A stretch of 64,000 nt of DNA. Source: a virus. Shown in pieces: positions 23,733-43,502 of the stretch. Where the stretch lies: positions 1 to 64,000 of the IMG/VR virus record IMGVR_UViG_3300042731_006512. One strand, 5' to 3'. Each line of letters opens with the position of its first letter. The stretch's first letter is position 1. The notes below the pieces were generated by a model that was not told where the DNA came from, did no database searches, and was given only the letters and a program-made list of their open reading frames with translations. The translations under genes were made by a program, and so were the position numbers.

Positions 23733-24068
23733 TTAAACTAAAAGAGCCATCATAAACGGTAAACTTTTAGCTATACTTGAAAATAAAGCTACAGGCGGAA
23801 ATGGTATCTGGTCAGGAATAGGTGTTACAATAGTAGATGGCATCATTTTTACAAAGTCATTCATTTTGACAAATAAACCAGCTTGTCGTATCTGTTCTCC
23901 GGTAGAGATTAATGATAATGGCCCAGAAATACAACAACCTTCTTTACTTGCAGCAAAAAAAGCATTCTTAGCACCTGCCATAATAGCACTTTCTGGAGTT
24001 ACCATAAAACCAGCAACACTTTCTTTATCGGCCTTCCAGATTCTGAACTTACTCTTCGGTGTCGCCAT
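23733..24068 (-). CDS. Hypothetical baseplate-module protein (spike-tip/PAAR position)
   Basis: I start it at the ATG at 24066..24068 (MATPKSKFRIW...), which has a TAAGGAG SD, rather than the track's upstream start. 111 aa. Position between the V-like and W-like genes. Confidence 0.5.
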   Translation of the reverse strand: MATPKSKFRIWKADKESVAGFMVTPESAIMAGAKNAFFAASKEGCCISGPLSLISTGEQIRQAGLFVKMNDFVKMMPSTIVTPIPDQIPFPPVALFSSIAKSLPFMMALLV

Positions 24069-24070
24069 TC
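24047..24070 (-). repeat. 24-nt direct repeat, copy A (start region of gene 23733..24068)
   Basis: GAATGGCGACACCGAAGAGTAAGT matches GAATGGCGACATCGAAAAGTAAAT at 24828..24851 in 21 of 24 positions. The two copies bracket the HNH ORF. Confidence 0.7.
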
Positions 24071-24864: not shown

Positions 24865-25284
24865 TCAAAGCGAAACACCCCCAAGAAATATCTTATAAGG
24901 CCCTATTTCAATCTCATTTTGAAGCGGAGCCTTATTTAAAAACTGATGGTCTTCGTCACCAATCACTTCAATAATCACATTCTTAGGACTAAGTTTCCCT
25001 TTATAATAAACTCTCACAACTAAACCTTCCCTTAAAGCACCCCATAAAAGATGTATTTCAGACAAAGGTGTAGATAAAGGTAAAAAGCCATTTGAAATCT
25101 CATCTCCTATTTTACCATCAGAAAGTATTCTTCGCACTCTAACTTGTCCATTGTTATAGTTTATTTCACTGATTATTCCATAAGTTATTCTATCTTCTTC
25201 ATCTTTTGGTAACATACTTTCACGAGATGTCTCGTGAAGCTTTTGCTGTAAAATATTTTTCGGCGCAGCAGAACTATAACCCAT
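24865..25284 (-). CDS. Baseplate spike/hub OB-fold protein (P2 gpV / Mu gp45-like)
   Basis: 139 aa. ITYGIISEINYNNGQVRVRR...FLPLSTP...LREGLVVRVYYKG follows the gpV N-terminal OB-fold pattern. It lies immediately downstream of the hub-containing giant ORF. Confidence 0.45.
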   Translation of the reverse strand: MGYSSAAPKNILQQKLHETSRESMLPKDEEDRITYGIISEINYNNGQVRVRRILSDGKIGDEISNGFLPLSTPLSEIHLLWGALREGLVVRVYYKGKLSPKNVIIEVIGDEDHQFLNKAPLQNEIEIGPYKIFLGGVSL

Positions 25285-28200
25285 TATTCTAAGTCATCTC
25301 CTAAAAACACAGAACTAAAATCTCCTTCTGAATGTCCAAACCAATAGTTATTTTTAAACTTATCGTATGTATCTTCAAGATAAAGAGGTATTGTTTCTGA
25401 AGTCTCTTTAAACCAATCGCCAATACCTTGAATAAAACTTCCATCTGTATATCTATTAGGTAATCCACCTATCATAGGCTTACCAGCACATACAAGAGGA
25501 GAAAATCTAAAAGGATGGGCAAGTTGAGTTCTTGTAACTAACTTTCTAAAAATAAACAATCCAACAGAACCAAATAAAGAAGTTTGTTGGTTATAAGCAG
25601 GAGTATTTTCTGTCTGATTAAAAAACATGCGCGCCAAAGGAGAAAATCCAAAACCACTTATAGGATTAAAAGCAGCAGACAAAATATCTCCATAGTTCTT
25701 ATGGATAGAACCAAGACTCTCTAACCCAATCTGTCTTAAACCATGTTCTGCTATCAATCCCATAGCATCTTGAGTTGATAAGGTGCTTTCTTGGTTAACG
25801 TGAACACATAAATCAGGGGTGATTTCTGTTATAAAACCATTTTTCTGACTAAACTTGTGAACAACTTTTTCTACTTCTACTGGTCCATAAATATCTGAAT
25901 ATTCATCAAAGATATAAATTACATCTAATGGTTTTATCTTCGGATTCCCAACCAAAATCAAACTACCACCATAAGATTCCTTTAATGAGTTATATAACAA
26001 CGACAAAGAATAAAGCTTTGCCATTTCATATCCATTACAGTTAGGATATTGAGCAAACATTTCACGAATATCTTCATCAGGAATAGCAGCATCTGCTTTT
26101 AAAGTAAAAGTTTCTGGGTCTCCAAAGTTAAGCTCAGAAGTATCTTTATTAAACTCAGGTCCATCATCGCTATATTGTAATGTAACAGTATTGAAAACGT
26201 TATGGCCAGAAGAAGAAATAGAGTTGTGTAATATATGAAGAGAGCTTGTTGCTATATGATATGAGCGAAATGGTTTTATAAAACCACGCGCCTGAGCAAA
26301 AAGTTTTGCTGCTTTTTTCAGCCAGTTTTCTATTTCATCATCAGACTGAGAGTTTTCAATCTTTTTTAATGCATTATCTAAATCACGCGCACCTTCTTTA
26401 CCTAACTCTCTACTGGCATCTTGAAGATTTGTTCGCACTTTTTCAGTATAGTCATCGGTTATTCCATTCTTGACAACTTCACGTAACTTACTGATAACAT
26501 TATCTTCTTCCACAGTAGAGTCTCTTGCAAAATATAACTGGTCTGGTAACCCAAAAAACAACGTCATTCTTGGACCATATTTGCTTTCATATGGAACAGC
26601 AGAGGTAATATAGGATGGATGCCTTAATGTCATCTCTTGCAATACATCCCAGATTGTTGTATTGAACATAATATATTTTTTCGAACCTTTCGCAGCTTTC
26701 AATGGGTTAATCAATGCATCAACAAAACCTAATGGACCAGAACCTTGCGGTGGGAACAAGTTATCGTCTCTCGGATTTGGATTAAATCTCCATCTACTTT
26801 GCAATAAACCTCGTTGCTTATTTGCTCCAAAACCACCAGCTTCCCATCTTCCGAAATGAACAACCTCTGGAGCAGATAAAATATTATTCAATACCATCCA
26901 GGTCCGACCATCATCACTAAACCAACCACCAAAAGATTTTGATTCACCCTGTATTGTTTGAACAAGCTCAACAGCAAAACTTTGACATACAATAGTAACT
27001 AAATCAGTAGTTTCAGAAAACTGATATTCAACTATCATACCATTGAATACAGTTTCAAGCTCAGCCGGGTTATTACTAAAGCCCATCTTCAACTGGATTT
27101 GTGTGCCAGCTTGAAGCATCAAAGAAGCAATAGGATTTTCTTTTATTGTATTAACAGAACCACTATCACCTTCTCTTTCTTCAGAAATACTTCCATCTTC
27201 CCTGAAAGCTAAGTTTGGATTTTTAGCATCTATAAACTTGCGATTATTCAAAGAACCAGAAATGTTTGTTAACTGAAGAATACATAAATCGGCTGCTATT
27301 TTTCTGTGCCTAACAACCTGAATCTCTTGAACCGCATTATAAGCAAAAAAATCATCAAAAGCATATTTTTTACGCTCACCAAGGTCGCTTTCTATAAAAT
27401 AAAGTTTAAAAGCAGGGTATGCGCGCATCATTCCATAGCCTGCACCTGTCTTCAAATCTTTCTCAAACTGTTGAACACTCTTATAAAAAAGACTTTCATT
27501 CTCTGGGTCTATTCCCAATAAAGGTCCTTGCGATTTATATTCTCCAACCCCTACAATATGCTCTATCTTTCCAATCTTATGAGTAGAAAAATGTTCTTCT
27601 GCAATAGGGTCTACAGGAACACCATTCTGTCTTATTTCAAAATGTAAATGCGAACCAGTAGAATAGCCAGTATTATCCATTACTCCAATCTGTTGCCCTT
27701 TTCTAACTATTAGAACTCTATCCTTCACAGATTTAGGAACAGGGCTATCCAAAAGTTCATCAAAAAATATATCAAAAAAACCCTGAACAATAGGCTCCCA
27801 TTTCAAATGGCCATATCTTGTTTCATAGCCATTTCCATGTTTTATTCTTACGCGAACACCTCTCTCGTCGTTGTTAACACCTATTATTCTACCTGTTTCG
27901 GCTGCATATATAGGAGTTCCAGCGCTGTCTGCTGGAATATTACCAGCAATATCAATACCAGTATGAAAAACTTCTTTATTCACACCTCTACGCGCCCTTA
28001 CTGGGTCAAGACGCTTACCAAAAGGAGATGTTATTCTTCTAGCAGTAGAAGGTGTCGGAGGAATAAAGACTGGCGTTTTATTCTTGTCAAACACAACCGG
28101 AGAATAAGATTGTTCAGGCAAAAAAGACAAACAATCATATGTATCAAACCTATGAGATACAGACTCAGAGTTAGAAGATGGCCTCATTGTTGTTGGGCTT

Positions 28201-31106
28201 CTATGATTAGATATGACACACTGCGTATCATATTTGCTTTGACGAGATTTAATAATACTTTTTGAAAAAGAGATTCCTTTAACAGGAACACTTTCTCCAT
28301 TTTTATTAGCTTCAAAAACGGACGGCGCAACAGAACCTGTCAATAAGTTGGGAGCTGTGCCATATTCATTTAAATGTTTCTGGTATTCATCTGCATAGTT
28401 TTTACCAGGCGAATTGTCACCTTTAAAAAAATCAGTTTTGAAAGAATCAACAACAGTATCAAAAACATTAGACCTTCTTTGAGACCCTAATATTTCTGTC
28501 TCATAAACGTTTTTAAACCAGTCAGATTCCGCTTCTTTCATAGAAGCACGAGCGGCAATAATGCTATCTTTAGTTTTTTCTATAATATGATGAGGAAAAA
28601 TATCATCTATAACATCAACAGTATGATTTAAAAAATAAAAGTCAGGATTAATAAGAGAAGATATACCAACATTTTTTAAACCCAAACCAGCTTTTTCCCA
28701 AAAAGCAACTAGTCCGTCATATAAAAACGTAGATAAATCAGTATCTTCCTGGATTAAAGACAGAACTTCCCTCAAAGGAAAATCTGGAAAACAATCAGCA
28801 GTATCTATGCCTCCTCTATTATTTCGAATCAAATCTCGAACAGTTTGAAACTGAGGAAGAGACAAAATATCATCATCATTTAATATCCTATCAAGAAAAT
28901 CATTAGCAAAGTTAATCCAATCTCCAAAAATCTTATTAATAAAACCCTGAAGTTTTTTTATATTTTCAGTTTTATATTTATCAAAAAAATCACCTGCTAC
29001 ATTTGGAATAGTCTCTCCAAATCCTATAGAAGACAAAGCTGCTCGCTCATTTCGCTCATTCTCTGCTTTGATAAGGTTTTCAGCATTTTGTTTTATCTCA
29101 GCATCTGTAGTAGCTTTGACATCACCCCCATATATAGTCTGACGTGGCAAAAGACTCAAAGTATCGCGCAACTTTACTGAGCCATTTTTACCAGTAAGGA
29201 CATCATATACTTTAGATAAATCTTCGTTGATTCTTTCTATACCAAAAACATCTTCATCTGTTAATACAGATAAATCACTAACCATCTCAATACCAACATT
29301 GCCATATTTAAGAAATCTTATATGGAACAAAAGATATTCACATATATAACTAAACTTTTCGGCATATTGACTACATAACTCCTTAAATGCCTGACTTTTT
29401 TGTCCAAGTGGACCATTAAAAATATAATATGGAGTTCTAGGATTATCTATTGTTGGAGCAAATGATAAAGGCCTTTCTATGTTTGCTGAATATGGACTAT
29501 CTATAAACGTCTTGTAAGAAGTAGTTTCTTTCCAAAAAGTATCCTTTTCAAGATGCAAAAACTTATCACCATTAAACTTAAGATTTTTTTCTAAAATATG
29601 AGCTATTTCTATTCTAAGGTCCTGCGCGCTAGTAAAGGATTGACCAGGAATAAGTTTTTCTTGTGTTTGAGTAGTCAATGGATTATCTATAAGTGTAAAT
29701 ATAGCACTCCATGTTCCTGGTTCACCTTCTACGTTTTCAACAGAAAGATTTTCTGGCAAGAACTCAGAAAGTCCGCACATATTTACCAAGTCATTATCAA
29801 CAGAAATATTCTTATGACCAGATGGTATATTTCTATATTTATGATGCTGTCCCTCGACTAAAGAATAAAACTCAGAAAGATGACGTATTGCTTTTTGGTC
29901 GACCGTGGCTATAGAAAAAGAAACTCTTGCATCTATACTACCAATATGCTGAAAAGTCGGATATGGATGACCCACCAAAGGAAGAGTTGCAAGTATATTT
30001 TCGAAAGAAATCGAAATACCTTGAACAATCAATCCTATATCATTAAAATCAAGCTCTCTGTCTCGAGATAATAAAATAGTATCTTCTGGGTTATATTGAG
30101 ACAAATCAGCTTCACGTGGCTTTGAAGAAGGTTTTGATTTTATAGTAACGTATTCGCCATTTCTTAAAATAACAGGCTTCCAGCCAAACGCTTCAACAGC
30201 AAATCTACTATCTCTTTTTCCTGGTTCAATAGCCTCTTTTATAAGACTTTTTACTTTATGAAGAACATTCTTGCTGTTTTGCTCATAAAACATAGATGTA
30301 GTATCGCCAAAAATCTCTCTACGCAACGAACGCGCCCAGTTCTCGTCTTTCAGTTCATCAAATAAAACATCACGAATCTTTTCTCCGACTGCAGAACCTT
30401 CTTTATTAGAAGAAAGCTGGGATAACTCGTTGCTTAACTTTTTAAGAGAAGCTACTTCTTTGTCTCGTACTTCAAAATACCTTTTTACTGTCAATGCCTT
30501 ATATTCTTTGAAACTAAGAACCAAACCAGTATGCAACCTATCAACTTGTTTATACTTATGGCGTCTCTGTTCTGCCTGATACATTAACTGCCAAGGTTTA
30601 CTGTCAGCAGGATTCTTAACAGCTTCAGTTCCCATTAGATTTTTCTTATAAAGAAAGTCGCGCATAAACGGAAAATAGTTAAACCAACAAAAATGAAAGT
30701 TTACAACAATAACATTTGTACTTCTGTCGTCGGTTCCTGCAGTAATCTCCATCTGTTTTAAAGCCAAGGCCATTGACTGATGTGAATGTCCAGCGAAAAA
30801 CTTATCTCTTAAAAAACTATTCTCTACATAACAAAACGGAGTCACACGAAACTGAGATATTAAATCACGAAGTTGTCGAAATCCATTTCTTGTTGAACCA
30901 AGAGGTGCACCAGAAACCAACTCGTCTATAAACTCAACTGTTATATATATATCAGCAGTTGAAAATCCAGACTTAGATTTAATCGAAGACTGAGTTCTTA
31001 ATGTTTGCCATTGATTATTAAAAGACTGTCTATCTACACGAATATTTTTTGGAGGAATATCCAAAATCTGATTATTAAACTGGAATAAAGAACTATATTC
31101 AGCCAT
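25284..31106 (-). CDS. Giant multidomain tail protein: unknown N-terminal part, M23 metallopeptidase, and C-terminal gpD/gp27-like baseplate hub region
   Basis: 1940 aa. M23 motifs HTGIDIAG (about 27945..27965) and GSHLHFEIRQNGVPVDP (about 27600..27650). A later segment, QLKMGFSNNPAELETVFNGMIVEYQF...TIVCQSFAVEL (about 27020..27105), resembles late-control-D/hub proteins. Synteny places a hub upstream of the V-like spike. Confidence 0.65.
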   Translation of the reverse strand: MAEYSSLFQFNNQILDIPPKNIRVDRQSFNNQWQTLRTQSSIKSKSGFSTADIYITVEFIDELVSGAPLGSTRNGFRQLRDLISQFRVTPFCYVENSFLRDKFFAGHSHQSMALALKQMEITAGTDDRSTNVIVVNFHFCWFNYFPFMRDFLYKKNLMGTEAVKNPADSKPWQLMYQAEQRRHKYKQVDRLHTGLVLSFKEYKALTVKRYFEVRDKEVASLKKLSNELSQLSSNKEGSAVGEKIRDVLFDELKDENWARSLRREIFGDTTSMFYEQNSKNVLHKVKSLIKEAIEPGKRDSRFAVEAFGWKPVILRNGEYVTIKSKPSSKPREADLSQYNPEDTILLSRDRELDFNDIGLIVQGISISFENILATLPLVGHPYPTFQHIGSIDARVSFSIATVDQKAIRHLSEFYSLVEGQHHKYRNIPSGHKNISVDNDLVNMCGLSEFLPENLSVENVEGEPGTWSAIFTLIDNPLTTQTQEKLIPGQSFTSAQDLRIEIAHILEKNLKFNGDKFLHLEKDTFWKETTSYKTFIDSPYSANIERPLSFAPTIDNPRTPYYIFNGPLGQKSQAFKELCSQYAEKFSYICEYLLFHIRFLKYGNVGIEMVSDLSVLTDEDVFGIERINEDLSKVYDVLTGKNGSVKLRDTLSLLPRQTIYGGDVKATTDAEIKQNAENLIKAENERNERAALSSIGFGETIPNVAGDFFDKYKTENIKKLQGFINKIFGDWINFANDFLDRILNDDDILSLPQFQTVRDLIRNNRGGIDTADCFPDFPLREVLSLIQEDTDLSTFLYDGLVAFWEKAGLGLKNVGISSLINPDFYFLNHTVDVIDDIFPHHIIEKTKDSIIAARASMKEAESDWFKNVYETEILGSQRRSNVFDTVVDSFKTDFFKGDNSPGKNYADEYQKHLNEYGTAPNLLTGSVAPSVFEANKNGESVPVKGISFSKSIIKSRQSKYDTQCVISNHRSPTTMRPSSNSESVSHRFDTYDCLSFLPEQSYSPVVFDKNKTPVFIPPTPSTARRITSPFGKRLDPVRARRGVNKEVFHTGIDIAGNIPADSAGTPIYAAETGRIIGVNNDERGVRVRIKHGNGYETRYGHLKWEPIVQGFFDIFFDELLDSPVPKSVKDRVLIVRKGQQIGVMDNTGYSTGSHLHFEIRQNGVPVDPIAEEHFSTHKIGKIEHIVGVGEYKSQGPLLGIDPENESLFYKSVQQFEKDLKTGAGYGMMRAYPAFKLYFIESDLGERKKYAFDDFFAYNAVQEIQVVRHRKIAADLCILQLTNISGSLNNRKFIDAKNPNLAFREDGSISEEREGDSGSVNTIKENPIASLMLQAGTQIQLKMGFSNNPAELETVFNGMIVEYQFSETTDLVTIVCQSFAVELVQTIQGESKSFGGWFSDDGRTWMVLNNILSAPEVVHFGRWEAGGFGANKQRGLLQSRWRFNPNPRDDNLFPPQGSGPLGFVDALINPLKAAKGSKKYIMFNTTIWDVLQEMTLRHPSYITSAVPYESKYGPRMTLFFGLPDQLYFARDSTVEEDNVISKLREVVKNGITDDYTEKVRTNLQDASRELGKEGARDLDNALKKIENSQSDDEIENWLKKAAKLFAQARGFIKPFRSYHIATSSLHILHNSISSSGHNVFNTVTLQYSDDGPEFNKDTSELNFGDPETFTLKADAAIPDEDIREMFAQYPNCNGYEMAKLYSLSLLYNSLKESYGGSLILVGNPKIKPLDVIYIFDEYSDIYGPVEVEKVVHKFSQKNGFITEITPDLCVHVNQESTLSTQDAMGLIAEHGLRQIGLESLGSIHKNYGDILSAAFNPISGFGFSPLARMFFNQTENTPAYNQQTSLFGSVGLFIFRKLVTRTQLAHPFRFSPLVCAGKPMIGGLPNRYTDGSFIQGIGDWFKETSETIPLYLEDTYDKFKNNYWFGHSEGDFSSVFLGDDLE

Positions 31107-34100
31107 TATGTTAATATTCTATCAGCTATGTCATACTTACTCAATCTTGACCTATTATCTCTTACATTAACATTCATTCTATTAAATGACACAGACCTTC
31201 TGTATTTTCGGACCATATCTTCTGCATTTGTTCTAGAAGAAGACCTTGCTCTTATATTTATATTTCTATTTTCTGCTCCAGGAAGTATTCTAGCTGACGG
31301 AGTAACCATTATAGAAGGAACTGTAGGCTCACCAAGTGGCGCTTCTGGAGGTAGAATATTCTCTGCAGTCATTTTCTGAGTCGCTTTATTAAAATCTGTT
31401 ACTGTTTTAGCATTCGGAACTAAATCAGCCCCAGACCCAATCAAGTCTTCGGGCTTTGACAAGGCAAGACCTATTGCTAATGAACCAGCCAAACCCCAAC
31501 CAAGAGCCTTCTTATGTTCAATCAACCCCATTCCCATCGAAGCAGCAAAGTTCTTTGCTCTCATAAATCCTTCAGAAACTCCAGTAAAAGCTCCTTTACT
31601 AGAACTTAAAACAGAACCCGTAAAAGATAAATATTTTCCTAGATTGGTAATACTTGGCGCTTTCCTTGCTGAAGCAATACGTGACATTTCTTCCAAACCT
31701 GTTGTCTCAGCCCATTCCATCGCATTCATCATATCTCGAGTTGTTTCTTTAATATTCACTGCAGGTAATACATCTCTCATTGACTTGACGCCGGTAATCT
31801 CTCTAATACGCTCTATATTTTTAGGAATACGCACTTCTTGGTCAAGCAAAGCTCGCGAAACTTCATCACTTTCAGCTAACATATTACGTATCACTTGTTC
31901 AAGTCGCACAGGGTCCTTAGCTTGAAATGCACTTTCTGCCTTTGCTAACAAAACAGACATTTCATCACTCAAAACCTTTTGTCTACTTAAGTGTTTAGAT
32001 TTAATAATACTTTCTTCTAACCAGTTAAGAGTAAAAGCAACATTTGCCGCCTGCTGTCCTTTTAATCGCTGAACTGCTGCTTGTTTAGCTCCGTGCATTT
32101 GTAAAGATAATCTTCCAATCCACTGTTGACCTGTAGCAAGCTTTAATGCGTCAGCAATCTTTTTTTCTTGAGTAGCTAAAAGCTCTGCACCACCAGCAGC
32201 TTTTGTCTTGATAATCTGAGCACGCACCATATGTTCCATATAGGCCTGAGTGTATTGATTATCAGCATAAGTAAATCCTTTTCTAATATTTTTCTCTAAA
32301 TCCGGACTGACAAGAGAAACAGATGCTATATCAGCATCTAAGTCCATACCCATTCCAACCATTGGAGATAGCTCAATAGGATTTTTCATACCTATATCTA
32401 CAGAAACAGAAGGCATTACAACTACAGGCTCACGAATATCTTTCATCATTTGTATATTAATAGGTTGAGCAGAATACGGACCAGCAATAGGATGTCTCCA
32501 TATCATTCCACCGATAGATTGACCAGCAAGAAAGCGCTTATTCATTTCTTGAACAGACTTAATATCAGCAGCACCAGTTATAGAAGCTAAATCCTCAAAC
32601 ATTTGTTCTCCAATATATTGAGGAATACCTACAGTCATAACTCCAGGAGCTTTATGACCACCTGTTTCAGAAACACCTCTTAAAAATCTCGAACCTAATA
32701 GTTGTCCTCTAGCAATAGCACCTTCCCCTTTACCAAATGGAGCTTGATGAGTCATAATATTTCTTACAAAGTTATTTACTACATTACCAGCAGCTTCTAA
32801 ATCCACTCTTTTAGATTGTAATGTAAGTTTAGACATCTCACGAGCAAGACCATGATATTCCATAGCTAATACACCAGGAATATATTTCCCAGCTGGTGTT
32901 TTATAAGGAGTTAAGACATCTGCGCCTGGAACAAAAATATCTTTGTATCCAGCACCTACTCTAAGAAAACCACCACCACTTTCAATAAACTGCTGAAAAG
33001 CTTCATTGGAATATCCTTTTATTCCAATATCCCATAAAGCCGCTCCTTTTGTAGAACCCGTTTTTCCAGCTAAAGACGCAAGAGTTTTTGTTAACCCTTC
33101 ATATGTAGCAAGAGTTTCAGGATTAGATAAAGCAAGCCTGCGCGCCAACTCAGTAGACATAGATTCTCCAAGAGGCCCATATTGTCCACCTTTCAATACG
33201 TCAAAAACTCTCGGCTCTATAGAACCAAGTGCACCAGCTCCAGTCATAGCCATAGGTTCATGAAGAATACCTTGAGAAAGCCCAAAAGATATTCCTGTCA
33301 TTTGTTTCGCAAACTCCTGAGGAATAACCCCTTGATAAGCTTCTGGACTTAAAGCGCCAAATATTGTTCCAAACTCTTCTGGTTCTAATCCCACTTCTTT
33401 TACAGCAAGCCCCATCATTTGTTCCATAAAACCTTGAGGTCCATACTTTCTTCTCATAAAAGAAGAATATACTCTCGGGTTTCTCATAAAAGCAGCAAGC
33501 CTTTGATTGTGTTGTATGAAGTTTTTACTTCTATCTCTACGTATTTTTTCCCATAAACCAGTAATAACTTGAGTATTCAGCTTAACAGCATCTTTTGTCA
33601 ACTCATCCATAGAAACAACTCGAAAACGACCTTCAAGTTGTGTTATATCAAGCCCTGTTTGGGCAAACGCTTTTTCTAATCTAAATGGGTCAATAAACTT
33701 TTCTACAGCTTTATAACCACCAAATCTTTTTGCAGCCATTTCTGGAGCTAACGCTTGACGATACATCAAAGAAAACTCTTGTCCTCTCGCAGTTGTTTCA
33801 AAAGGTTGAAGACCCAAAAGTTCCATGCCTCGCTGAAAAATAACTGATTTCCCTTCTGGAGTTTGTCCAAGAACTTCACCAACTTGAAATACATCTCTCT
33901 TAAATATTCTTTCTGCCACCCCTTCGGCAACAGAACCAAGATGTATAGGAAACGGTTGACCGACTACACCAAGTTGTCTTCTAAAACTCGGAACATTTGC
34001 TATCAAAGCTTCACCTTCTTTCATTCCAAGTTGTTCAAGCATTTGTCCGTGTTTTACTGGGTCAACATATACTGTAGGCATCCAAGGCGTAGCGTAGTTT

Positions 34101-35437
34101 CCAAAATCTCTGCGCCAAGCTTGTGTTTCAAATATAGACCATTTCGAAGAACCAGATGTTAACATTTCAGATACAGCCTTATCGCTGGCTCTCCATTGTC
34201 TTAAAGCTTGACGAGGTTGTCTTGCCCAATCTATATCTTCTGGTGTCATAAACCATTCAGAAGCATTAAAACTGCTGACACGTCCTTTCGCTAAGTTAAC
34301 AGGACTTGCAAAAGGAAATAGTTCTGGACGAGACATAACTGCTTTAAACTGTTCCTCAGTTGGTCGACTATAAACAGAACGAAATACTTCTCCAGGTCTA
34401 AGCTCCGCCAGCTTTCCTTCTGTAACTATATCAAGTCCTTGACCCTTAATACGTTGATAGCTTTTCCAAGCAGGAGAAAGTAGATTTTCTGGAAGATTTG
34501 GGATAGATTCTAAAGCATAAATATTTCTTTCATATGCAGTACTAATAGCTCTTTCTATATCATATCTTGAAGTATACTCTCCACTCGCTATTCTTGGTAA
34601 TATTGATTGCTGTATATCTCGAAGCAAAAACTCATGTCTTGATAGTCTATTCATCTGGCCAGTTCTTGGGTCAAAAATACCTACATCTGGAGCAATCCTT
34701 CTTGCTGATTGAGTAAGACCTTCTATTAACACTCCACCGCGTGCAACAGGAACAGTAATATCAAACGGGATCTTGCCTTTCATAAAAGACATTACATAAG
34801 TCCCATGTTGCTGCCAGCCTTGTCGAGTATAGTATCTTACACCAGTACTTGTTAAACCTGCATCCTTAACAAAAGATTTATGAAAAGAAGCTATCTCCGC
34901 AGGCAGTTGATTAATAGAAACATTTCTTGGAGCAGGAAACGTTAATCCTTCGACAGTTTTAAACTTTGGAATATTACCAGTTAGTTCATAATGTTTTCTT
35001 AATGAAGCAACATTACTTTTGAACTTATTATATATGCGCGCCATAAAAATAGAGTTATTTCTTTGAAGTGTTTGTTCTATAGAAGACATAACCTTAGTTG
35101 TTGGAGCAGTTTTGATGTCACCAGCAAAAGAAAGAACATTTGAAGCTAATGGGTCGGTAGACTGAACAGCCTCAATCCAGGCAGTTCTTGCAAGCTCTGG
35201 CTGTGTTTTAAACAGTTGTTGATTTTGACCTAAAAAAGACAAGTCTATTCCAGAGTTAGAAGATAAACTACTCTTTTGAAGAGTACCTATAAACCCAGAT
35301 GTAGACATAGGCTTAGGAAAAGTGAAGTATCCTTTATCTGCCATTTTTCTAACAGATGAAGAAACTCCATATGATAATGGAGCAGCAACAGCAAGACCTT
35401 TTAAGGCATTAAATCTATCGTCTTTATTATTAGGCAT
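31106..35437 (-). CDS. Giant protein with RNA polymerase beta-prime-like double-psi beta-barrel catalytic core (candidate divergent RNAP)
   Basis: 1443 aa. Collinear motifs: FGKGEGAIARGQLLGSRF (32684..32737), VGIPQYIGEQMF, AADIKSVQEMNKR, WRHPIAGPYSAQ, IELSPMVGMGMDLDADIASV (DLDAD at 32330..32344), and KKIADALKLATGQQWIGRL (32108..32158). These parallel E. coli beta-prime [15 protein letters not shown] / CGLPKKMALELF / ATTIKAAKKMVER / NRAPTLHRLGIQ / [22 protein letters not shown] / [21 protein letters not shown]. Confidence 0.5.
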   Translation of the reverse strand: MPNNKDDRFNALKGLAVAAPLSYGVSSSVRKMADKGYFTFPKPMSTSGFIGTLQKSSLSSNSGIDLSFLGQNQQLFKTQPELARTAWIEAVQSTDPLASNVLSFAGDIKTAPTTKVMSSIEQTLQRNNSIFMARIYNKFKSNVASLRKHYELTGNIPKFKTVEGLTFPAPRNVSINQLPAEIASFHKSFVKDAGLTSTGVRYYTRQGWQQHGTYVMSFMKGKIPFDITVPVARGGVLIEGLTQSARRIAPDVGIFDPRTGQMNRLSRHEFLLRDIQQSILPRIASGEYTSRYDIERAISTAYERNIYALESIPNLPENLLSPAWKSYQRIKGQGLDIVTEGKLAELRPGEVFRSVYSRPTEEQFKAVMSRPELFPFASPVNLAKGRVSSFNASEWFMTPEDIDWARQPRQALRQWRASDKAVSEMLTSGSSKWSIFETQAWRRDFGNYATPWMPTVYVDPVKHGQMLEQLGMKEGEALIANVPSFRRQLGVVGQPFPIHLGSVAEGVAERIFKRDVFQVGEVLGQTPEGKSVIFQRGMELLGLQPFETTARGQEFSLMYRQALAPEMAAKRFGGYKAVEKFIDPFRLEKAFAQTGLDITQLEGRFRVVSMDELTKDAVKLNTQVITGLWEKIRRDRSKNFIQHNQRLAAFMRNPRVYSSFMRRKYGPQGFMEQMMGLAVKEVGLEPEEFGTIFGALSPEAYQGVIPQEFAKQMTGISFGLSQGILHEPMAMTGAGALGSIEPRVFDVLKGGQYGPLGESMSTELARRLALSNPETLATYEGLTKTLASLAGKTGSTKGAALWDIGIKGYSNEAFQQFIESGGGFLRVGAGYKDIFVPGADVLTPYKTPAGKYIPGVLAMEYHGLAREMSKLTLQSKRVDLEAAGNVVNNFVRNIMTHQAPFGKGEGAIARGQLLGSRFLRGVSETGGHKAPGVMTVGIPQYIGEQMFEDLASITGAADIKSVQEMNKRFLAGQSIGGMIWRHPIAGPYSAQPINIQMMKDIREPVVVMPSVSVDIGMKNPIELSPMVGMGMDLDADIASVSLVSPDLEKNIRKGFTYADNQYTQAYMEHMVRAQIIKTKAAGGAELLATQEKKIADALKLATGQQWIGRLSLQMHGAKQAAVQRLKGQQAANVAFTLNWLEESIIKSKHLSRQKVLSDEMSVLLAKAESAFQAKDPVRLEQVIRNMLAESDEVSRALLDQEVRIPKNIERIREITGVKSMRDVLPAVNIKETTRDMMNAMEWAETTGLEEMSRIASARKAPSITNLGKYLSFTGSVLSSSKGAFTGVSEGFMRAKNFAASMGMGLIEHKKALGWGLAGSLAIGLALSKPEDLIGSGADLVPNAKTVTDFNKATQKMTAENILPPEAPLGEPTVPSIMVTPSARILPGAENRNINIRARSSSRTNAEDMVRKYRRSVSFNRMNVNVRDNRSRLSKYDIADRILT

Positions 35438-38400
35438 CTAAAGCTTGCAAAAGTAACTCTTGTTCCTCTTCTGTTCTATCTTCTTCTATATCTAAGTTTA
35501 TAGAAACTTCTTCTTTTGGTGCAGTACTTGTTGAAATAAATACATCTCCTTTCATTTTATCAGCAAAAAGCAACTCGTTAATACGAGATTTCATTTCTTC
35601 ACTTGTTAATCTTTCTTGGTTAATAAGCGGCTCTATAGCTTCTTCATCTATAAATGGTTTGTATGGTAACTCTTTTTCTCTGGATGGCCAAAGATTTAAA
35701 GGAATAGGCTCTTCTCCTAAGTGTTGAACAAGTTTCAGTTTCACATCTTCAAGGTCTACGCTTGGATTGAACGCAACCCAATCCGGCCCAGGAATACCTT
35801 CAACTCCACTTAATATTTTAACTCTACGATACCAATCAGCATAGTTTTCACCAGGATACTTAGTTTTTAAATATTCAGCAAATAACTCATCTGATATAGG
35901 GAAACCTTCAGTTTTTGCTTCCTTATATACAGCATCAATCTTTTTGTCAGCTTCAACTTCTTCTGCTTCAGAAAAAATACCAGCTTTTACAGCCTTCTTC
36001 AAATCTCCAGCGTGAACTAACTTCCAACGAGCTATATATAAAGATTTTTCATTTTCAGGAACCATTTCTAAAATACGTTGTCTTTCTTCAATAGTATCCG
36101 CTTTCTCAAAAGCAGAAAAATAATCTCTTTCTCTTCTTGGTAATGCGCGATAAAGTGAAGAATAGTTACGGGTAAATGGATTTATACCAAACAAAGTTTC
36201 ATCTTTATTTTTTTCGAACTCTTTAACTGCTTCTGTATCTCCTACCATGCGCGCCAGATTTGAAAGTCTGGCATTCTTTACATATTTAAGAATATCAAAA
36301 TAGTTTTCTAAATCGCGCGTCTGTTGAGAAGCCTCAGGTACTCCCTCGTATCCAAACGTGTGAGCAATAGAACGAGCAAACGGAGCAAGAAAATGAGACA
36401 CTGGATGTTGCCAAAATGCCGATGACTGTCCATATAAAATCTCTCTTTCATAACTTTCAATAGGTGTTCTCATATGAACTAACTTTGCTCCAGGAGAAAT
36501 AGGTGTCAACTGGTCAAAAGCAGTTTCAGCATTATGAGCAAGTAGTTCCCAATATCCACCAAAGAACTTTTTAAATAAAGACGGTTTTTCTTCTCGAGAA
36601 GCTTTCCATTCATTCATTTTAGCTATAAGTTCAGAACTCTCTTGTTTCGCGCCAGGAAAAACTTCTCCCATAGAAGATAAATATTTGTATTCTTGAAACT
36701 CTACTCTTTGTTTCTTTTGCTTTACTTGTTTGAGAGTTGTTTGATAAATATCTTCTTCGTAGTCAGTCCAATCTTTAGATGCTCGTTTGGCACGTATCTT
36801 TTGGAGAGATTGTTTATATTTATCACTATACATTGCAACATCAGAAAGTATTTTGAACTGATGAATCAATGGATAATCACCTGGTTCTATATCCTTAAGC
36901 TCTGGATAAAGCTCAGCATATCCAGGCCCTGGCAACCTAATCTCACCCATTGGCACTTTATTAAAATAATATCCCGTACTAAAATCAGGTGCTTTCTCAC
37001 CAGGCCCAGGAAGCCATTCTGGAGCACCTGAAGGTATTGGGTTAACTAAATCCACTTGGTGTCTTCGATGAGGAAATAATCGACGAATCGGTTCAGTTAA
37101 ACCAAAAGGGTCACCAAGTTCTTTTTCCCAATACCACCTTTCAACACCAAAAACACGACGAGCACTTTCTAACTGCGCCAACTGGTCAAACCAATCTTGG
37201 CTCCCAGTTATTTTTTCTTTGATTGCCGCAGTCGTAAAACCAGTCAAACCAATCATTTCTGTGCCAACCCTATATATCTGCTCACCAATAATAGACTGAG
37301 CAGAATATGGAGATACAGGTATTCCTTGAGGTACTTGACCAGCTTCAGTAGCTATTCTTGCTCCAAAAGACGGCGACTGAGTTTTTACACCTTTATCAGA
37401 AAACCAATGTTCTGTATTTAAATATAGTTCTGGTTTTATCCAACGACCAACAGTTGCCGAAAGTATAGGGCCAAGAAACGGAACATCTTCAAAAGGCAAC
37501 GAACTCACTGGAAAATATGGATGCCTTTTTTCTATCTCATAAGTAAACTCTTGCTTGTACCATCTTTCTATAGGACTAAGCTTTTCCAGGTCTTCGCCCC
37601 ATATTACTCTTTCTCTTCCCTGTTTTTTAAGTAAAGGTATCCAATGCTGACGAAAATATTGAACTCTTTCTCCTTCTGCTGGACTACGCCCGAATAGCCA
37701 ATAGCGACCTTTCCTTATAGGAACTTCCTGTTTTCCAGAATATATATCTTTAAGTTCTTCAGAGGATGTTTGAGGAAATAGCGCGCCAGGTAAAAAAGGA
37801 AGAACAGCAGCCAATCCTATACCAGCACCTAAAGCCATTCCAAATCTTGTTGGAGTATTTATTTTTTTAGCTAATCTTCCAAGAAGTCCACCTGACTTAC
37901 TTTCTAAAACTCGACCAATATTTTCGCCAAAAGTTCCAAAGTGTTTCCAAGATTTAAAAGCTTCATCCATTCTATGTCTCGCCATAGAAGCAGAAATACC
38001 TTCTGATATTTGAAGATGTGCCATTCCTCCTATTTTTCCAAAATAAGACAACGCGCCGACACCAAAAGCACCCATTATTGGAAAAGCAGCCAGTTTTAAA
38101 AGAGATGTACTACCAGGAGCTATTTCTTCTTGTTTGCGCGCATAATCAGACAAACCAAGACTTTCTGATATTTGAGCAGTTTTTATATGCGCTGCAGCAG
38201 GAATAGAAGCCAAGCCATAACTTATACCTTCAGAAAATAAAGTCTCATCAAATAACTCTGATTTTCTTGTATACCAATCAAGCGTTTCATAGCCTAAAGA
38301 TAAAGCCCCAAGGCCTAAACCAAACTTAGCAGTAAATCTTCCAAGCATAGAAAGCCCACCACCAGGTTTTATAGCAAGACGCTTACCTACAACAGGAAAC

Positions 38401-39179
38401 ATTGTCAGTAAACGATTAAATCTACTTATTTGTTCTGTTCCTAAAGCACCAAGTTTTCTCCAAGTATGTTGGAAAATATTTCTTCCACCTATAATCTGGG
38501 CTGGATATCCTTCTATAAGCGGATTCAATATATCTGGATATCTATCTTTTAAAGGAGCCGCAGCAGCAAAAAATCTTTCAAAAGGTGGATTGCCTCTTAG
38601 TTCTCTAAGTCCAAGCCTTCGAGCGTAAGCTGCCCCTATATAAGAAGCTTCACCAAGACCAGCAGTTCTAATAGCTGAAGCATACTTAAGTGCTACGTCT
38701 GGACCTTGACCCCAAAAAAGCCTACCAGAACGTAAGGTAACTCCTTCTTTTAAAAGCCGAGAATAAGCATCTCCACCAATAAGTTTTGATAAATATTCAG
38801 CTTGTTGACGATTTGTCTTAAGAAGCTCAGGTCCTACAAATAGATTTGCCTGTCGAACAGATGTTTCAAAACCTGAAAATATTGATGATGACTGAAATGT
38901 CCGAAATATTCTTGCTGGAGAATATTCTTCTAATGCACGCAGACCTTTAACATAATAATCCCAAACGTGTCCTCCTTTAAAAGGAACATATCCAAAAGCA
39001 GCAATACCACCTACACCAGCAACAAAAGAAGCAAAGTTAGAAAACTGTTTCGAAACTGGTCGGGCTGGTATTTGTGGATAGTTAGACCAACGTTCTGGTT
39101 GGTCTCGAGGGTCTGTTAAAGATGGACCATAATAAGCTCGTGCAGCAGAAAGATTAGTTGTAAATGGAAATCGGGCCAC
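35430..39179 (-). CDS. Giant tail-module protein with Gly/Ala-rich hydrophobic N-terminal helices (tape-measure or ejection-protein candidate)
   Basis: 1249 aa. N-terminal hydrophobic segments FVAGVGGIAAFGYVPF, FGLGLGALSLGY, LAAFPIMGAFGVGALSYFG and MALGAGIGLAAVLPFLPGALF; acidic C-terminus. It overlaps the next ORF by 8 nt. It follows the chaperone-like genes, where a tape measure is expected. Confidence 0.4.
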   Translation of the reverse strand: MARFPFTTNLSAARAYYGPSLTDPRDQPERWSNYPQIPARPVSKQFSNFASFVAGVGGIAAFGYVPFKGGHVWDYYVKGLRALEEYSPARIFRTFQSSSIFSGFETSVRQANLFVGPELLKTNRQQAEYLSKLIGGDAYSRLLKEGVTLRSGRLFWGQGPDVALKYASAIRTAGLGEASYIGAAYARRLGLRELRGNPPFERFFAAAAPLKDRYPDILNPLIEGYPAQIIGGRNIFQHTWRKLGALGTEQISRFNRLLTMFPVVGKRLAIKPGGGLSMLGRFTAKFGLGLGALSLGYETLDWYTRKSELFDETLFSEGISYGLASIPAAAHIKTAQISESLGLSDYARKQEEIAPGSTSLLKLAAFPIMGAFGVGALSYFGKIGGMAHLQISEGISASMARHRMDEAFKSWKHFGTFGENIGRVLESKSGGLLGRLAKKINTPTRFGMALGAGIGLAAVLPFLPGALFPQTSSEELKDIYSGKQEVPIRKGRYWLFGRSPAEGERVQYFRQHWIPLLKKQGRERVIWGEDLEKLSPIERWYKQEFTYEIEKRHPYFPVSSLPFEDVPFLGPILSATVGRWIKPELYLNTEHWFSDKGVKTQSPSFGARIATEAGQVPQGIPVSPYSAQSIIGEQIYRVGTEMIGLTGFTTAAIKEKITGSQDWFDQLAQLESARRVFGVERWYWEKELGDPFGLTEPIRRLFPHRRHQVDLVNPIPSGAPEWLPGPGEKAPDFSTGYYFNKVPMGEIRLPGPGYAELYPELKDIEPGDYPLIHQFKILSDVAMYSDKYKQSLQKIRAKRASKDWTDYEEDIYQTTLKQVKQKKQRVEFQEYKYLSSMGEVFPGAKQESSELIAKMNEWKASREEKPSLFKKFFGGYWELLAHNAETAFDQLTPISPGAKLVHMRTPIESYEREILYGQSSAFWQHPVSHFLAPFARSIAHTFGYEGVPEASQQTRDLENYFDILKYVKNARLSNLARMVGDTEAVKEFEKNKDETLFGINPFTRNYSSLYRALPRRERDYFSAFEKADTIEERQRILEMVPENEKSLYIARWKLVHAGDLKKAVKAGIFSEAEEVEADKKIDAVYKEAKTEGFPISDELFAEYLKTKYPGENYADWYRRVKILSGVEGIPGPDWVAFNPSVDLEDVKLKLVQHLGEEPIPLNLWPSREKELPYKPFIDEEAIEPLINQERLTSEEMKSRINELLFADKMKGDVFISTSTAPKEEVSINLDIEEDRTEEEQELLLQALDA

Positions 39180-39180
39180 A

Positions 39181-40071
39181 CTACTTCTTCCTCAGCTTTC
39201 TCCTATTTTCTTCCAAACGCTTTTTAGCTTCAGCTATTCTTTGGTCTTCACTTTTAATCTTAATCTTCTCACCCTTTTTCAAAGCTTCAAGATAATCTCC
39301 AAATATAACCTTAGCGTCTTCCATCATTTGACTTTCAACAGGAGAATCAGAAGTAGGGTCAGCATCCAGATTATACATAAGTTCACGTCCAGAAATAACA
39401 GTATCTCCATTTTTATCAGTATCATTAAAAGAAGGAGTTTCATTCTCAACTGTCATTCCAGGACTCTTAGTACCTTGTTGACGTAACTTTCTAAGATTCC
39501 ATTCTTCTTCTTGTTGTCTATATTCTTCACTAAGTTTAGATAAATCTACTTTGTGTTGTTTTCTTGGTTTCTTTGTGTTTTTATTTTCAAAATCAAATGG
39601 TTCAGATAGTATACCAGTATCTAATAGTTTTCTTTCGGCCAGTGCGAAAAGAAAGAAAATCTCCTGAATGTCCTTTCTTAATAAATCATCGGGAGTATAA
39701 CTATACGCTAAACATATAGTATTAATCAGTTGATATAAACTATTGTCTACAACAGAACGATTATAGTTAAGAAAATAACCCAGTTCTTCTTGAGAGTTAG
39801 GAGCTGAATATTGAAGAATGGTATTTGCTACAGTTGTTGGTGTTCCTGCTTTTTGCTGATAAATATTATCTATTAAAACTTCATCTTTCACACATTTAGT
39901 AAAAATCTCATTTTCTATTACCCAAGAAGGAATAATATCTGAAGATAATATCTTTGAATAAGTGAAAAAATCTGAAAGAGATAAAAGAGAGAACGGAACT
40001 ACTAATCCATCAGGAAGTTCTAAAACAAAAACTGAGCCATATCTTTCGCGTAAATCTGCTGGATTTCGCAC
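39181..40071 (-). CDS. Putative tail assembly chaperone-like protein with charged C-terminal extension
   Basis: 296 aa. The N-terminal YGSVFVLELPDGLVVPFSLLSLSDFF...KAGTPTTVANTIL is similar in pattern to the preceding 139-aa ORF. Position between the tube genes and the giant ORFs. Confidence 0.3.
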   Translation of the reverse strand: MRNPADLRERYGSVFVLELPDGLVVPFSLLSLSDFFTYSKILSSDIIPSWVIENEIFTKCVKDEVLIDNIYQQKAGTPTTVANTILQYSAPNSQEELGYFLNYNRSVVDNSLYQLINTICLAYSYTPDDLLRKDIQEIFFLFALAERKLLDTGILSEPFDFENKNTKKPRKQHKVDLSKLSEEYRQQEEEWNLRKLRQQGTKSPGMTVENETPSFNDTDKNGDTVISGRELMYNLDADPTSDSPVESQMMEDAKVIFGDYLEALKKGEKIKIKSEDQRIAEAKKRLEENRRKLRKK

Positions 40072-40087
40072 AAAATAAAACTTATCC

Positions 40088-40507
40088 TTAAAGTTTCATT
40101 ACCAAAACAGAAGCCATAGCAGGAGCCATAAAGTTAGAGTTTGTCATAATCTGTTCAGAAAGAGTTGAAATACTACCACCCTTGTTCTTTAATATTTTCT
40201 CGTCTGAACTCCAAAGAATACATTGATTTACAACAGCTTCTTCAAAATCTAAGTCGGTAAACTGTTGCTCATTTTCCTGAGCAGGAGTTCGCATTTTCTT
40301 TTGAAGCTCGACATATTCTTTTCTATTTAATGGACGCCAAACAAATATATCAGTTTCAGAAAATCCAGAAACAAATACTTCTCCAAACTGTTGTTTCCAT
40401 TTTTCTATTTCTGCTGCACCAGGTGAGTTATCAAACTCTTCAAGTAGTTTTACAAGATTAGGAACTTCTGATTCCTGAGTCTCTGGTTGTTTTTGTTCTT
40501 CTTTCAC
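40088..40507 (-). CDS. Putative tail assembly chaperone-like acidic protein
   Basis: 139 aa, acidic. FGEVFVSGFSETDIFVWRPLNRKEYVEL...GGSISTLSEQIM. Called by synteny. Confidence 0.3.
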   Translation of the reverse strand: MKEEQKQPETQESEVPNLVKLLEEFDNSPGAAEIEKWKQQFGEVFVSGFSETDIFVWRPLNRKEYVELQKKMRTPAQENEQQFTDLDFEEAVVNQCILWSSDEKILKNKGGSISTLSEQIMTNSNFMAPAMASVLVMKL

Positions 40508-40804
40508 TTATTTCTCCTTTAATCTACTATTGTTTTGAATAACTACCTTATTATCTTCTAAATATATAACATCAAAGTCGAAATCACTTAAACGCTGCAT
40601 ATAATGACATTTAAAATCTTCATTAGAAATAAGAATCCACCCATTTTCTTCACTTAATACATCCAAGTGTTTTAGATTATACTCAGCAGTATAACTATGA
40701 TTGTTACAATCCTTACCCCAAACTAAAGGTAATAATAGTTTGCTATCATATTCTAATCCTAACTCAGGCCAACATTCTTCATTGTTGATAATAGTAGCTT
40801 CCAT
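40508..40804 (-). CDS. Hypothetical protein
   Basis: 98-aa ORF with AAAGGAGAAA SD. Its stop directly abuts the start of the next gene. Confidence 0.45.
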   Translation of the reverse strand: MEATIINNEECWPELGLEYDSKLLLPLVWGKDCNNHSYTAEYNLKHLDVLSEENGWILISNEDFKCHYMQRLSDFDFDVIYLEDNKVVIQNNSRLKEK

Positions 40805-40856
40805 CTATTTCTCCTTTCAGTAATAATACACATATTTTTCAACAACAGCAAGAAAA

Positions 40857-41609
40857 CTATACACGCATTCTTCCCATAAATGGATAAACTTCCATTATAG
40901 GAAGTGGGTCAATCTCTACTCTTTGAGAACTACCAACAATATAACAATCTTCTAGTTTCACAATCGTATGATTAGCTCTGTCATCACCTGTAAAATCACC
41001 ATATGAAATAAATATATCAAAAGGATTCAGGTCTGGGTCGTCAGCATTTCTATTTTCAGAAACATTAAAGTCATGTGATTTGGTCTTACTTCCCCAAATA
41101 TAGTTTTCAAATGTTTCAAATATATTTTCAGCCGTTCCTACGCTTTCTCCACCTGCGCGCGTTGTAGAAGCAAACCCAGCCAAAGAAGCATATGCTTCAG
41201 CTAAACTTGCAATAGCTTCATATCTTTGGTCTTGTTCTACTTCGTTATTAATAACCTGCTCTACATTTTGTTGTAAAGATAAACTGCTTGTTTTAATAGG
41301 ACTCTGGTCAAGTTTTGAAAGTTTGCCTTTTATTTTAACTCGATATTCGTTGAGAACAAGCCATAAATAACCTGCTTCCTTGAAGTTAATAGCAAACTGA
41401 CCTTGGACTAATATCTGACCCTTAGACATAGCCCTAAAATATTGGTCTCCATATCCATAAAGAGGCCTTCGTTGCTGTTGGACTATAAAGTTAATAGCAG
41501 TGATTTCATCTACCAATATATCTCCAATAAAAACAGCTACTTGCGCGCCAGAAAAATGATCTACATCATAAACACCAGGTCTTATTCCACCAAAACTATC
41601 GTCAGCCAT
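40857..41609 (-). CDS. Tail tube-fold paralogue 2 (tube initiator/terminator candidate)
   Basis: 250 aa. FSGAQVAVFIGDILVDEITAINFIVQQQRRPLYGYG and NPFDIFISYGDF...IVGSSQRVEI align with the tube protein's FSGVDIKAVFNNQVIGELQAISYSISREKAPIYTMG and PPFDVTLAAANEYG...GYGVSIDDMV. Confidence 0.55.
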   Translation of the reverse strand: MADDSFGGIRPGVYDVDHFSGAQVAVFIGDILVDEITAINFIVQQQRRPLYGYGDQYFRAMSKGQILVQGQFAINFKEAGYLWLVLNEYRVKIKGKLSKLDQSPIKTSSLSLQQNVEQVINNEVEQDQRYEAIASLAEAYASLAGFASTTRAGGESVGTAENIFETFENYIWGSKTKSHDFNVSENRNADDPDLNPFDIFISYGDFTGDDRANHTIVKLEDCYIVGSSQRVEIDPLPIMEVYPFMGRMRV

Positions 41610-42757: not shown

Positions 42758-42794
42758 AATAAAAAAGCAGGGTCTGCCTATAGCCTACCCTGCT
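42758..42794 (-). terminator. Rho-independent terminator after the tail tube gene
   Basis: On the minus strand: AGCAGGGT-(13-nt loop)-ACCCTGCT followed by TTTTTTATT. It lies between the tube stop (42826) and the next start (42757). Confidence 0.7.
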
Positions 42795-42825
42795 ATTATT
42801 CTATCATACGATATTCTATCTGCTA

Positions 42826-43479: not shown

Positions 43480-43502
43480 TTTTTATACCTAATCCTCCTC
43501 TA

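Follow-up and report, generated by a model that had tools for sequence, protein, structure and literature searches.

The window analysed here comprises 64,000 nucleotides (nt) of the IMG/VR virus record IMGVR_UViG_3300042731_006512 (positions 1 to 64,000). On its minus strand it contains an open reading frame (ORF; 31106..35437) of 1443 amino acids (aa), the predicted product of which resembles a single-chain RNA polymerase (RNAP) of the two-barrel type and ends in a tape-measure-like C-terminal tail. An earlier note on this DNA had proposed that this giant ORF, located in a contractile-tail module, conceals a double-psi beta-barrel (DPBB) of the kind found in the RNAP beta' subunit, including an Asp triad (DxDxD), and had named Pfam searches, residue conservation, and structure prediction followed by Foldseek as ways to check the idea. 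The ORF list and the translation agree with the ORF as described there, and the two overlaps with the neighbouring genes were both found: the 5' end of the target shares 8 nt (ATGCCTAA) with the upstream 1249-aa ORF, and its 3' end shares 1 nt (TAATG) with the downstream 1940-aa ORF. All six motif strings are present at the residues indicated (901-918, 936-947, 956-968, 980-991, 1021-1043, and 1092-1110), with DLDAD encoded at 32330..32344; for the sixth motif the start (32108) was correct, but the end lies at 32164 rather than at 32158, a difference of 6 nt. The core of the proposal is supported by residue conservation, by the structure model and its Foldseek matches, by profile matches, and by synteny.

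The protein founds a large metagenomic family that has remained unannotated. A word-indexed search retrieved 10 close homologues, all of metagenomic origin and with 39-69% identity, and repeating it with the alignment as query added zero further sequences. An exhaustive profile search, in which hits were counted as representative clusters at 50% identity, found at least 238 clusters at E<=1e-3 and 151 at E<=1e-30. Nearly all members in the 238 clusters have a length of 1430-1590 aa, with the matched region at a constant place; in 17 IMG/VR loci the polymerase-like protein has 1416-1592 aa, with one at 2316 aa. The sole match in a species genome was a 3.1-kb contig (QNDS01000374.1; locus L027) binned as a Candidatus Fermentibacteria metagenome-assembled genome from a Guaymas sample, which is probably a mis-binned phage fragment and is not regarded as evidence for a host.

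Conservation was determined in an alignment of 130 full-length members sharing 19-70% identity with the window protein. The three aspartates of the triad (D1032, D1034, and D1036) are 100% conserved, as are P983, P837, E1141, and K1148. R981 (98%), R743, and E741 fall at 98-99%, S1111 reaches 98%, and S989, G915, S916, K570 (96%), and K615 reach 95-96%, followed by K576, H1149, and K1099 with 90%; G520, G524, and G529 are conserved as well. The triad varies only at its x positions (DKDAD, DFDGD, DYDGD, DYDAD, DTDGD, DVDGD, and others), and the combination R-x-P...DxDxD occurs in 17 of 17 IMG/VR loci. The most conserved peptide of the family, L-E-x-x-P-I-S-G-K-H (residues 1140-1149), was picked as the search pattern for locus finding. 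The target also carries the signature [RK]xP x(20-100) DxDxD, the filter of Chaban et al., with R981-H-P983 preceding D1032 by 48 residues.

The motif resemblance to beta' exceeds chance. When the family profile was aligned with E. coli RpoC by hhalign, residues 824-1040 matched beta' 236-468 over 185 columns (E = P = 1e-3), and the barrel region alone matched beta' 325-468 with E = P = 8e-4. In these alignments G-K-G-x-G..R-G..L-G-S-R of motif 1 is paired with its beta' counterpart, V-G-I-P with CGLP, R-H-P with NRAP, L-S-P with LHP, and DxDAD with DFDGD. The register that the earlier note had read against E. coli beta' was thereby recovered for motifs 1, 2, 4, and 5, but neither for motif 6 nor for motif 3 (AADIK...), which lies in a variable, gapped region and was placed by hhalign about 10 residues away. 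A search of the complete PDB sequence set with a hidden Markov model (HMM) of the barrel region gave 12 matches at E<=10, and all 12 were RNAP largest subunits aligned in the same register (E 0.12-1.5, with Rpb1 at 0.12-0.25 and a phage beta' at 1.3). The hhalign controls remained at noise level: rpoB scored 0.34, gp66 of a crAss-like phage 0.54, and gp96 of phage P23-45 0.73 (0.29 in another comparison). The sequence matches to beta' and Rpb1 are thus individually weak, yet specific and consistent with the fold search described in the following.

An AlphaFold2 model of residues 150-1300, calculated from 52 diverse sequences (model numbering plus 149 equals protein numbering), reached a mean predicted local distance difference test (pLDDT) value of 89.4 and a predicted template modelling (pTM) score of 0.87. 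All 50 matches listed in a Foldseek search of this model against the PDB were bacterial RNAP beta' chains, with probabilities of 0.90-1.00 and E values from 1.3e-4 upward, 31 of them at E<=1e-3. A first model covering residues 600-1200 and based on 11 sequences had a pLDDT of only 60.6, and Foldseek still gave nothing else than RNAP beta' chains. Against BFVD, the best named match was an uncharacterised protein of Acinetobacter phage vB_AbaM_ME3 (ME3; E 7.9e-6, 795 columns), followed by RNAP large subunits from giant viruses, poxviruses, and jumbo phages; these comprised proteins of the beta' type (RPO147 and a Ralstonia phage beta') as well as of the beta type (sheeppox RPO132 and a moumouvirus 'subunit beta'). 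As far as can be judged from the model, none of the outcomes that the earlier note had listed as speaking against its proposal, namely a lack of structural matches, a lack of a barrel, or a triad not conserved among homologues, occurred.

The globular core (residues 150-1300; 31538..34990, like all features of the protein on the minus strand) can be divided into domains on the basis of the model, the fold matches, and the conserved residues. A strand-rich block at residues ~452-582 (33692..34084), which carries a K570-x-F-G-x-x-K576 hairpin and in HMM comparison weakly matches the same region of ME3 gp36, is the candidate for a second, beta-like barrel (DPBB-B). In the two-barrel superfamily DPBB-B supplies two conserved basic residues (PMC7824862), and in the target a beta-like barrel at residues ~450-585 may supply K570 and K576 in the same manner. 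Residues 824-870 (32828..32968) contain P837 and were aligned by hhalign to beta' 236-280 (VLPPxLRP...DLNxLY), a segment upstream of the catalytic barrel. The beta'-like catalytic barrel itself (DPBB-A; residues 896-1045, 32303..32752) is delimited by hhalign, the PDB profile search, conservation, and the strand pattern of the model, and consists of the sequence blocks G-K-G-x-G..R-G..L-G-S-R, V-G-I-P, R-H-P..G-P-Y-S-x-Q-P, and L-S-P..G..D-x-D-x-D. The alignment register, the conservation, and the fold matches agree in assigning this region to the DPBB-A barrels with a DxDxD motif, as predicted from the model. Within it, R981-H-P983 (32489..32497) is singled out by conservation, alignment, and the filter of Chaban et al. 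as the counterpart of beta' N-R-A-P, and D1032-L-D1034-A-D1036, conserved and aligned to NADFDGD of beta' and Rpb1, is the putative Mg2+-binding triad.

Downstream of the barrel, both models contain a long helix of 36 residues (1089-1124; 32066..32173) that holds motif 6. The helix predicted here is in line with the bridge helix that the earlier note had assigned to this motif, but no profile match to the beta' bridge helix was obtained; by its position, the helix may serve as bridge helix. It is followed by a helix-loop-helix (residues 1127-1173; 31919..32059) with the peptide L-E-x-x-P-I-S-G-K-H at its tip, a candidate trigger loop. With these candidate assignments, the chain runs from the beta-like barrel through a connector to the beta'-like barrel and on to the bridge helix and trigger loop, as has been described for single-chain two-barrel enzymes. 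Model confidence is low from about residue 1279 to the end of the model, and residues 1290-1443 (31109..31570) make up a C-terminal tail that is not globular; it comprises a hydrophobic segment (GWGLAGSLAIGLAL), a stretch rich in Pro, and a basic terminus.

The window resembles a single transcription unit made up of phage structural genes, every one of which is encoded on the minus strand. A large terminase gene with an intein is located at 61224-63998, where matches to Intein_splicing and LAGLIDADG_3 precede the ATPase/terminase part; the N-terminal extein falls past the window end. Library searches identified the portal (55789-58257), the major capsid protein (50868-52127), and a Baseplate_J protein (22012-23232), and the tail sheath (43503-45413) was recognised by both PHROG and Pfam. 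Three tube-like paralogues (40857-43479) all match phrog_9206 ('major head protein'). Since they are positioned after the sheath and their counterparts in ME3 and Bacillus phage 0305phi8-36 are annotated as 'major structural protein', the data suggest that they are tail-tube proteins and that the PHROG label looks wrong. Small, chaperone-sized ORFs of 98, 139, and 296 aa lie between these paralogues and the 1249-aa ORF (within 39181..45413), and the order of sheath, tube, and small ORFs matches that of ME3 and 0305phi8-36.

The two genes that overlap the target both code for giant virion proteins. Directly upstream, where the earlier note had placed a chaperone-like gene, lies instead the 1249-aa ORF (35430..39179), whose product is homologous over its full length to the 'virion structural protein' ME3 gp35 (BLASTP 3e-77) and has hydrophobic, membrane-type segments at residues ~359-378 and 445-470. 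In every related locus, a homologue of 1131-2123 aa precedes the target. Directly downstream, the 1940-aa baseplate hub (25284..31106) contains a Peptidase_M23 domain (PF01551, 2e-20) at residues ~1019-1170 (nt 27597-28052) and in tblastn matches ME3 gp37 and 0305phi8-36 gp147, the latter being a gp27 homologue according to Hardies et al. Between the small hub-adjacent genes and the Baseplate_J gene lies an HNH endonuclease gene (24049-24849); since a gene of such size is lacking at this place in two related loci (L001 and L002), it probably represents a mobile insertion. Beyond the Baseplate_J gene, large fibre-like proteins end the gene order of the window; adjacent ORFs of 299 and 534 aa (19507-22010) both match phrog_21059 (virion structural protein) with their N-terminal ~70 residues, which suggests that they are paralogous baseplate or fibre proteins with an attachment domain in common. 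The order of sheath, tube paralogues, small ORFs, the ~1250-aa protein, target, M23 hub, and Baseplate_J is kept in L001, L002, and the 17 IMG/VR loci.

The location of the target is the slot that the earlier note had ascribed to the tape measure, and it does correspond to that of 0305phi8-36 gp146, a 'hypothetical tape measure protein'. Compared with a canonical tape measure, which is long and mostly alpha-helical and scales in length, the target has a compact, multi-domain, and strand-rich model, a near-constant length, and no long helical ruler; the near-constant length would make it a poor ruler. The length variation of the upstream giant makes this protein a candidate for the tail-length ruler or for a membrane channel. 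The 1940-aa gene was also considered as tape measure and was ruled out as a gp27-like hub with an M23 domain. A fusion or frameshift involving the 1249-aa and 1443-aa genes was likewise ruled out, as the relatives have ordinary coupling overlaps of 1 or 8 nt.

Because both flanking proteins have homologues there, the slot of the target can be equated with that of ME3 gp36, of gp034 in Bacillus phage KLEB27-3, and of 0305phi8-36 gp146. All three proteins are longer than the target and are labelled only as hypothetical, structural, or tape-measure, and none of them was matched by tblastn with the window protein. ME3 gp36 ('hypothetical'; 1603 aa) is a fold homologue of the target with GGDHDQD at residue 1217. 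KLEB27-3 gp034 (2434 aa, 'structural protein'; L008, 4314-11618) has ADYDGD at residue 1933, and matches of the family HMM in this protein cover the barrel and the C-terminal tail. Gp146 (2537 aa; L005, 5812-13425) was detected in virions by mass spectrometry (MS) and has no DxDxD, and its C-terminus is matched by the C-terminal ~70-150 residues of the family (HMMER 3e-9; hhalign 9e-5 with query residues 1366-1437). According to Hardies et al., conservation between gp146 and its positional homologues is confined to the final ~60 residues. The long forms found in this slot have 2316-2537 aa; KLEB27-3 gp034 and the protein of a further locus (L025, 4727-11677) keep the DxDxD barrel in their C-terminal half. 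Gp146 retains just the C-terminal tail, and 0305phi8-36 has a separate YonO/QDE-1-like polymerase, gp99.

On the predicted fold and on the observed active-site conservation, family, and synteny we base two claims of different strength. The target is very probably a polymerase-like enzyme of the two-barrel kind whose active site is intact. It is also probable, with less confidence, that it is a single-polypeptide, DNA-dependent RNA polymerase that is delivered by the virion and carries out DNA-templated RNA synthesis; here, virion location, ejection, template, product, and catalysis are inferred. The virion location would follow from gene position and relatives, the proteins in this slot being virion or structural proteins in 0305phi8-36 and KLEB27-3, and a joining to a tape measure may be reflected in the slot and in the C-terminal ~150 aa, both of which match gp146. 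The enzyme would be expressed late and be translationally coupled to the upstream membrane-type giant and the downstream M23 hub, and its C-terminal tail would anchor it in the tail or ejection apparatus. Upon sheath contraction it would be delivered into the cell, at least partly unfolded, accompanied by the membrane-type giant and the M23 hub. Once inside, it would transcribe those phage genes that enter first, with no need for the host polymerase, and might help to draw in the DNA, with the helix 1089-1124 acting as bridge helix and the helix-loop-helix with its K1148-H1149 tip as trigger loop. Such a delivery mirrors that of P23-45 gp96 and of the N4 ejectosome.

Several observations weigh against this interpretation. 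Scans of the whole target against Pfam, PHROGs, and NCBIfam gave no match, so that the Pfam check named at the outset returned no RNAP family; likewise, no RNAP family was found when 33 isolated barrel fragments were scanned against Pfam at E<=10, and the target stays below the curated Pfam gathering threshold for RNA_pol_Rpb1_2 and the cellular beta' family. None of the PDB sequence searches was significant, and both phmmer with the target and a profile search with the first 11-sequence profile gave only noise against the PDB sequences. In 50,697 phage genomes, tblastn with the window protein and with the distant members P0128 and P0157 found no match, and ME3 gp36 likewise has no relatives there. 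In hhalign, the bridge-helix region compared with rpoC gave noise equal to the reversed-sequence control, and the candidate second barrel did not match E. coli rpoB in sequence. In the family, Gly or Ala takes the place of the Asn ahead of the beta' triad (NADFDGD), so sugar specificity is not fixed by sequence. The Foldseek template modelling (TM) scores against RNAP subunits are low (0.12-0.19), because the superposition with these very large chains is limited to a few hundred residues. The expression [RK]xP..DxDxD is unspecific when used alone, as 5 window ORFs match it compared with 1.27 expected per shuffle; it was rejected as a stand-alone test, the other matching ORFs being structural proteins and the terminase. 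Finally, a globular core of ~130 kDa is hard to fit into the lumen of a tail tube, and the 64,000-nt window covers neither the early genes nor any second polymerase.

The size of the core is also an argument for the least unlikely alternative, an active two-barrel polymerase that happens to be encoded in the late tail operon but acts inside the cell, for example at the late or middle stage, and is not part of the virion. The separate, non-virion gp99 of 0305phi8-36, which is YonO/QDE-1-like, points in the same direction, as it indicates that phage-encoded intracellular RNAPs exist in the lineage. We nevertheless consider this alternative unlikely. At every locus seen, the gene has an invariant, translationally coupled position between two virion proteins, its C-terminal tail is common to gp146, a virion protein according to MS, and KLEB27-3 gp034 is annotated as 'structural protein'; moreover, a late-only polymerase would be of little use unless it were carried to the next cell. 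It is quite improbable that the target is a two-barrel enzyme with another chemistry, such as a PolD-like DNA polymerase or primase, a QDE-1-like RNA-dependent RNA polymerase, or a transcription-driven motor that reels in the genome. PolD and QDE-1 do belong to the superfamily, the Asn before the beta' triad is not conserved, and the data do not fix template and product; however, the best sequence and fold matches are beta' and Rpb1 of DNA-dependent RNAPs and not QDE-1 or PolD, the family conserves an arginine corresponding to that of R-x-P in beta', and the known virion two-barrel enzymes, gp66 and gp96, are DNA-dependent RNAPs.

A structural tape-measure or ejection protein with an inactive relic of a polymerase fold is very improbable. 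The annotation of the slot as tape measure in 0305phi8-36 would agree with such a relic, and gp146, which has no DxDxD yet ends in the same C-terminal tail, implies that a polymerase is not required to fill the slot. Relics lose their catalytic residues, however, and in the family, conservation of the three Asp, the R-x-P, both Lys, and the K-H tip amounts to 90-100% among sequences with only ~20% identity; furthermore, the length of the target is near constant (1416-1592 aa) compared with that of the upstream giant (1131-2123 aa). That the RNAP resemblance is a chance match of short motifs, as the unspecific expression and the empty single-sequence library searches might suggest, can practically be dismissed, given that structure search, conservation, and profile alignment converge on one register and one protein class and that the control proteins score at noise level.

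Virion-borne polymerases govern how, during the first minutes of infection, a phage escapes the control of its host. The few examples known are found in N4-like podoviruses (T7-type enzymes), phiKZ-like jumbo phages (multisubunit and head-packaged), crAss-like podoviruses, and one Thermus siphovirus (a two-barrel enzyme fused to the tape measure). If the proposed virion-delivered RNAP is confirmed, it adds a large family of at least 238 clusters at 50% identity, all of them unannotated, and we are aware of no earlier case of a single-chain two-barrel enzyme encoded in the tail module of a phage with a contractile tail. New are the family and its proposed virion architecture, whereas a virion RNAP in the tail module and the tape-measure slot was already known from P23-45. 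The existence of cultured relatives (ME3 gp36 and KLEB27-3 gp034) makes the proposal directly testable. It also raises the questions of how an enzyme of ~160 kDa passes through a contractile tail and which of the three giants measures the tail. With regard to RNAP evolution, the protein would be a deeply diverged fused enzyme whose beta' part can still be aligned to cellular beta', which is rare for single-chain phage enzymes, and for annotation it implies that labels such as 'hypothetical tape measure' or 'structural protein' in this lineage can mask an enzyme. A broader hypothesis, whose chances we regard as evenly balanced, is that a widespread, hitherto unrecognised lineage of beta-plus-beta'-like single-chain RNAPs resides, at the tape-measure slot, in the tails of contractile jumbo phages of the 0305phi8-36/ME3 lineage and is shot through the tube with the membrane-channel protein and the peptidase hub as a transcribing entry complex, which would be independent of the host RNAP from the first second. 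Since its sequence is nearer to cellular beta' than those of gp66 and gp96, this lineage could have arisen by a separate fusion of the multisubunit enzymes or have branched off from them early.

No published description of the family or of its cultured relatives as polymerase was found. The jumbo-phage survey by Iyer et al. names only the YonO-like gp99 for 0305phi8-36, and ME3 is absent from the examined supplementary data of Chaban et al., including the table of viruses with two or more RNAPs. The closest functional parallel is P23-45 gp96, a two-barrel polymerase fused to a tape measure that was shown to be present in virions and to act on pre-early genes (Chaban et al., 2024; PMC10770324). 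As with gp96, the predicted polymerase is a single two-barrel chain with a DxDxD triad, is encoded at the tape-measure position of a tail module, and is associated with membrane-type segments and a metallopeptidase, and for both proteins an ejection through the tail for transcription of the first genes has been proposed. P23-45, however, is a siphovirus with a non-contractile tail, in which the polymerase makes up the N-terminal 1200 aa of a tape measure of 5002 aa that has the peptidase and membrane domains in the same chain. In contrast, the target belongs to a sheathed phage and has 1443 aa with a central core and a tape-measure-like tail of only ~150 aa, and the membrane protein and the M23 hub are encoded by separate adjacent genes. 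No sequence similarity to gp96 was detectable by hhalign (0.29-0.73), and gp96 is absent among the 50 PDB fold matches listed.

In the N4-like phages (Schitoviridae), two further ejection proteins leave the virion along with a giant polymerase, which becomes active in transcription at the cell envelope (PMC13434306). The logic of this system is alike, but the N4 enzyme is a T7-like right-hand polymerase of unrelated fold that is packaged in the head of a podovirus. Cellulophaga phage phi14:2, a crAss-like podovirus, encodes with gp66 (PDB 6VR4) a virion-packaged enzyme that, like the target, is a single-chain two-barrel protein, with DFDID as its triad. The earlier note had named gp66 among the divergent phage RNAPs of the superfamily; the target sequence has no similarity to gp66 (hhalign 0.54, noise) and is nearer to cellular beta'. 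Gp66, QDE-1, and YonO were absent among the PDB and BFVD fold matches listed, and the QDE-1 and YonO sequences were not compared directly. In its gene arrangement phi14:2 is strikingly similar to the target locus: three adjacent giant structural genes verified by MS (L026, 998-17201) code for proteins of 1421, 2180, and 1797 aa, with the polymerase (DFDID at residue 1361) in the centre. The best fold match of the target remains the beta' subunit, and with residues 236-468 of E. coli RpoC it shares G-K-x-G..R..L-G-x-R, G-[IL]-P, R-x-P, L-[SH]-P, and D-x-D-x-D. Unlike beta', it is a single chain with a putative beta-like part, its putative trigger loop directly follows the putative bridge helix, and none of the sequence signatures of the beta' Zn-finger or clamp were detected. 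By its predicted fold and active site, the target thus appears to belong to the two-barrel polymerase superfamily, with a kinship to gp96 and gp66 at the level of this superfamily only.

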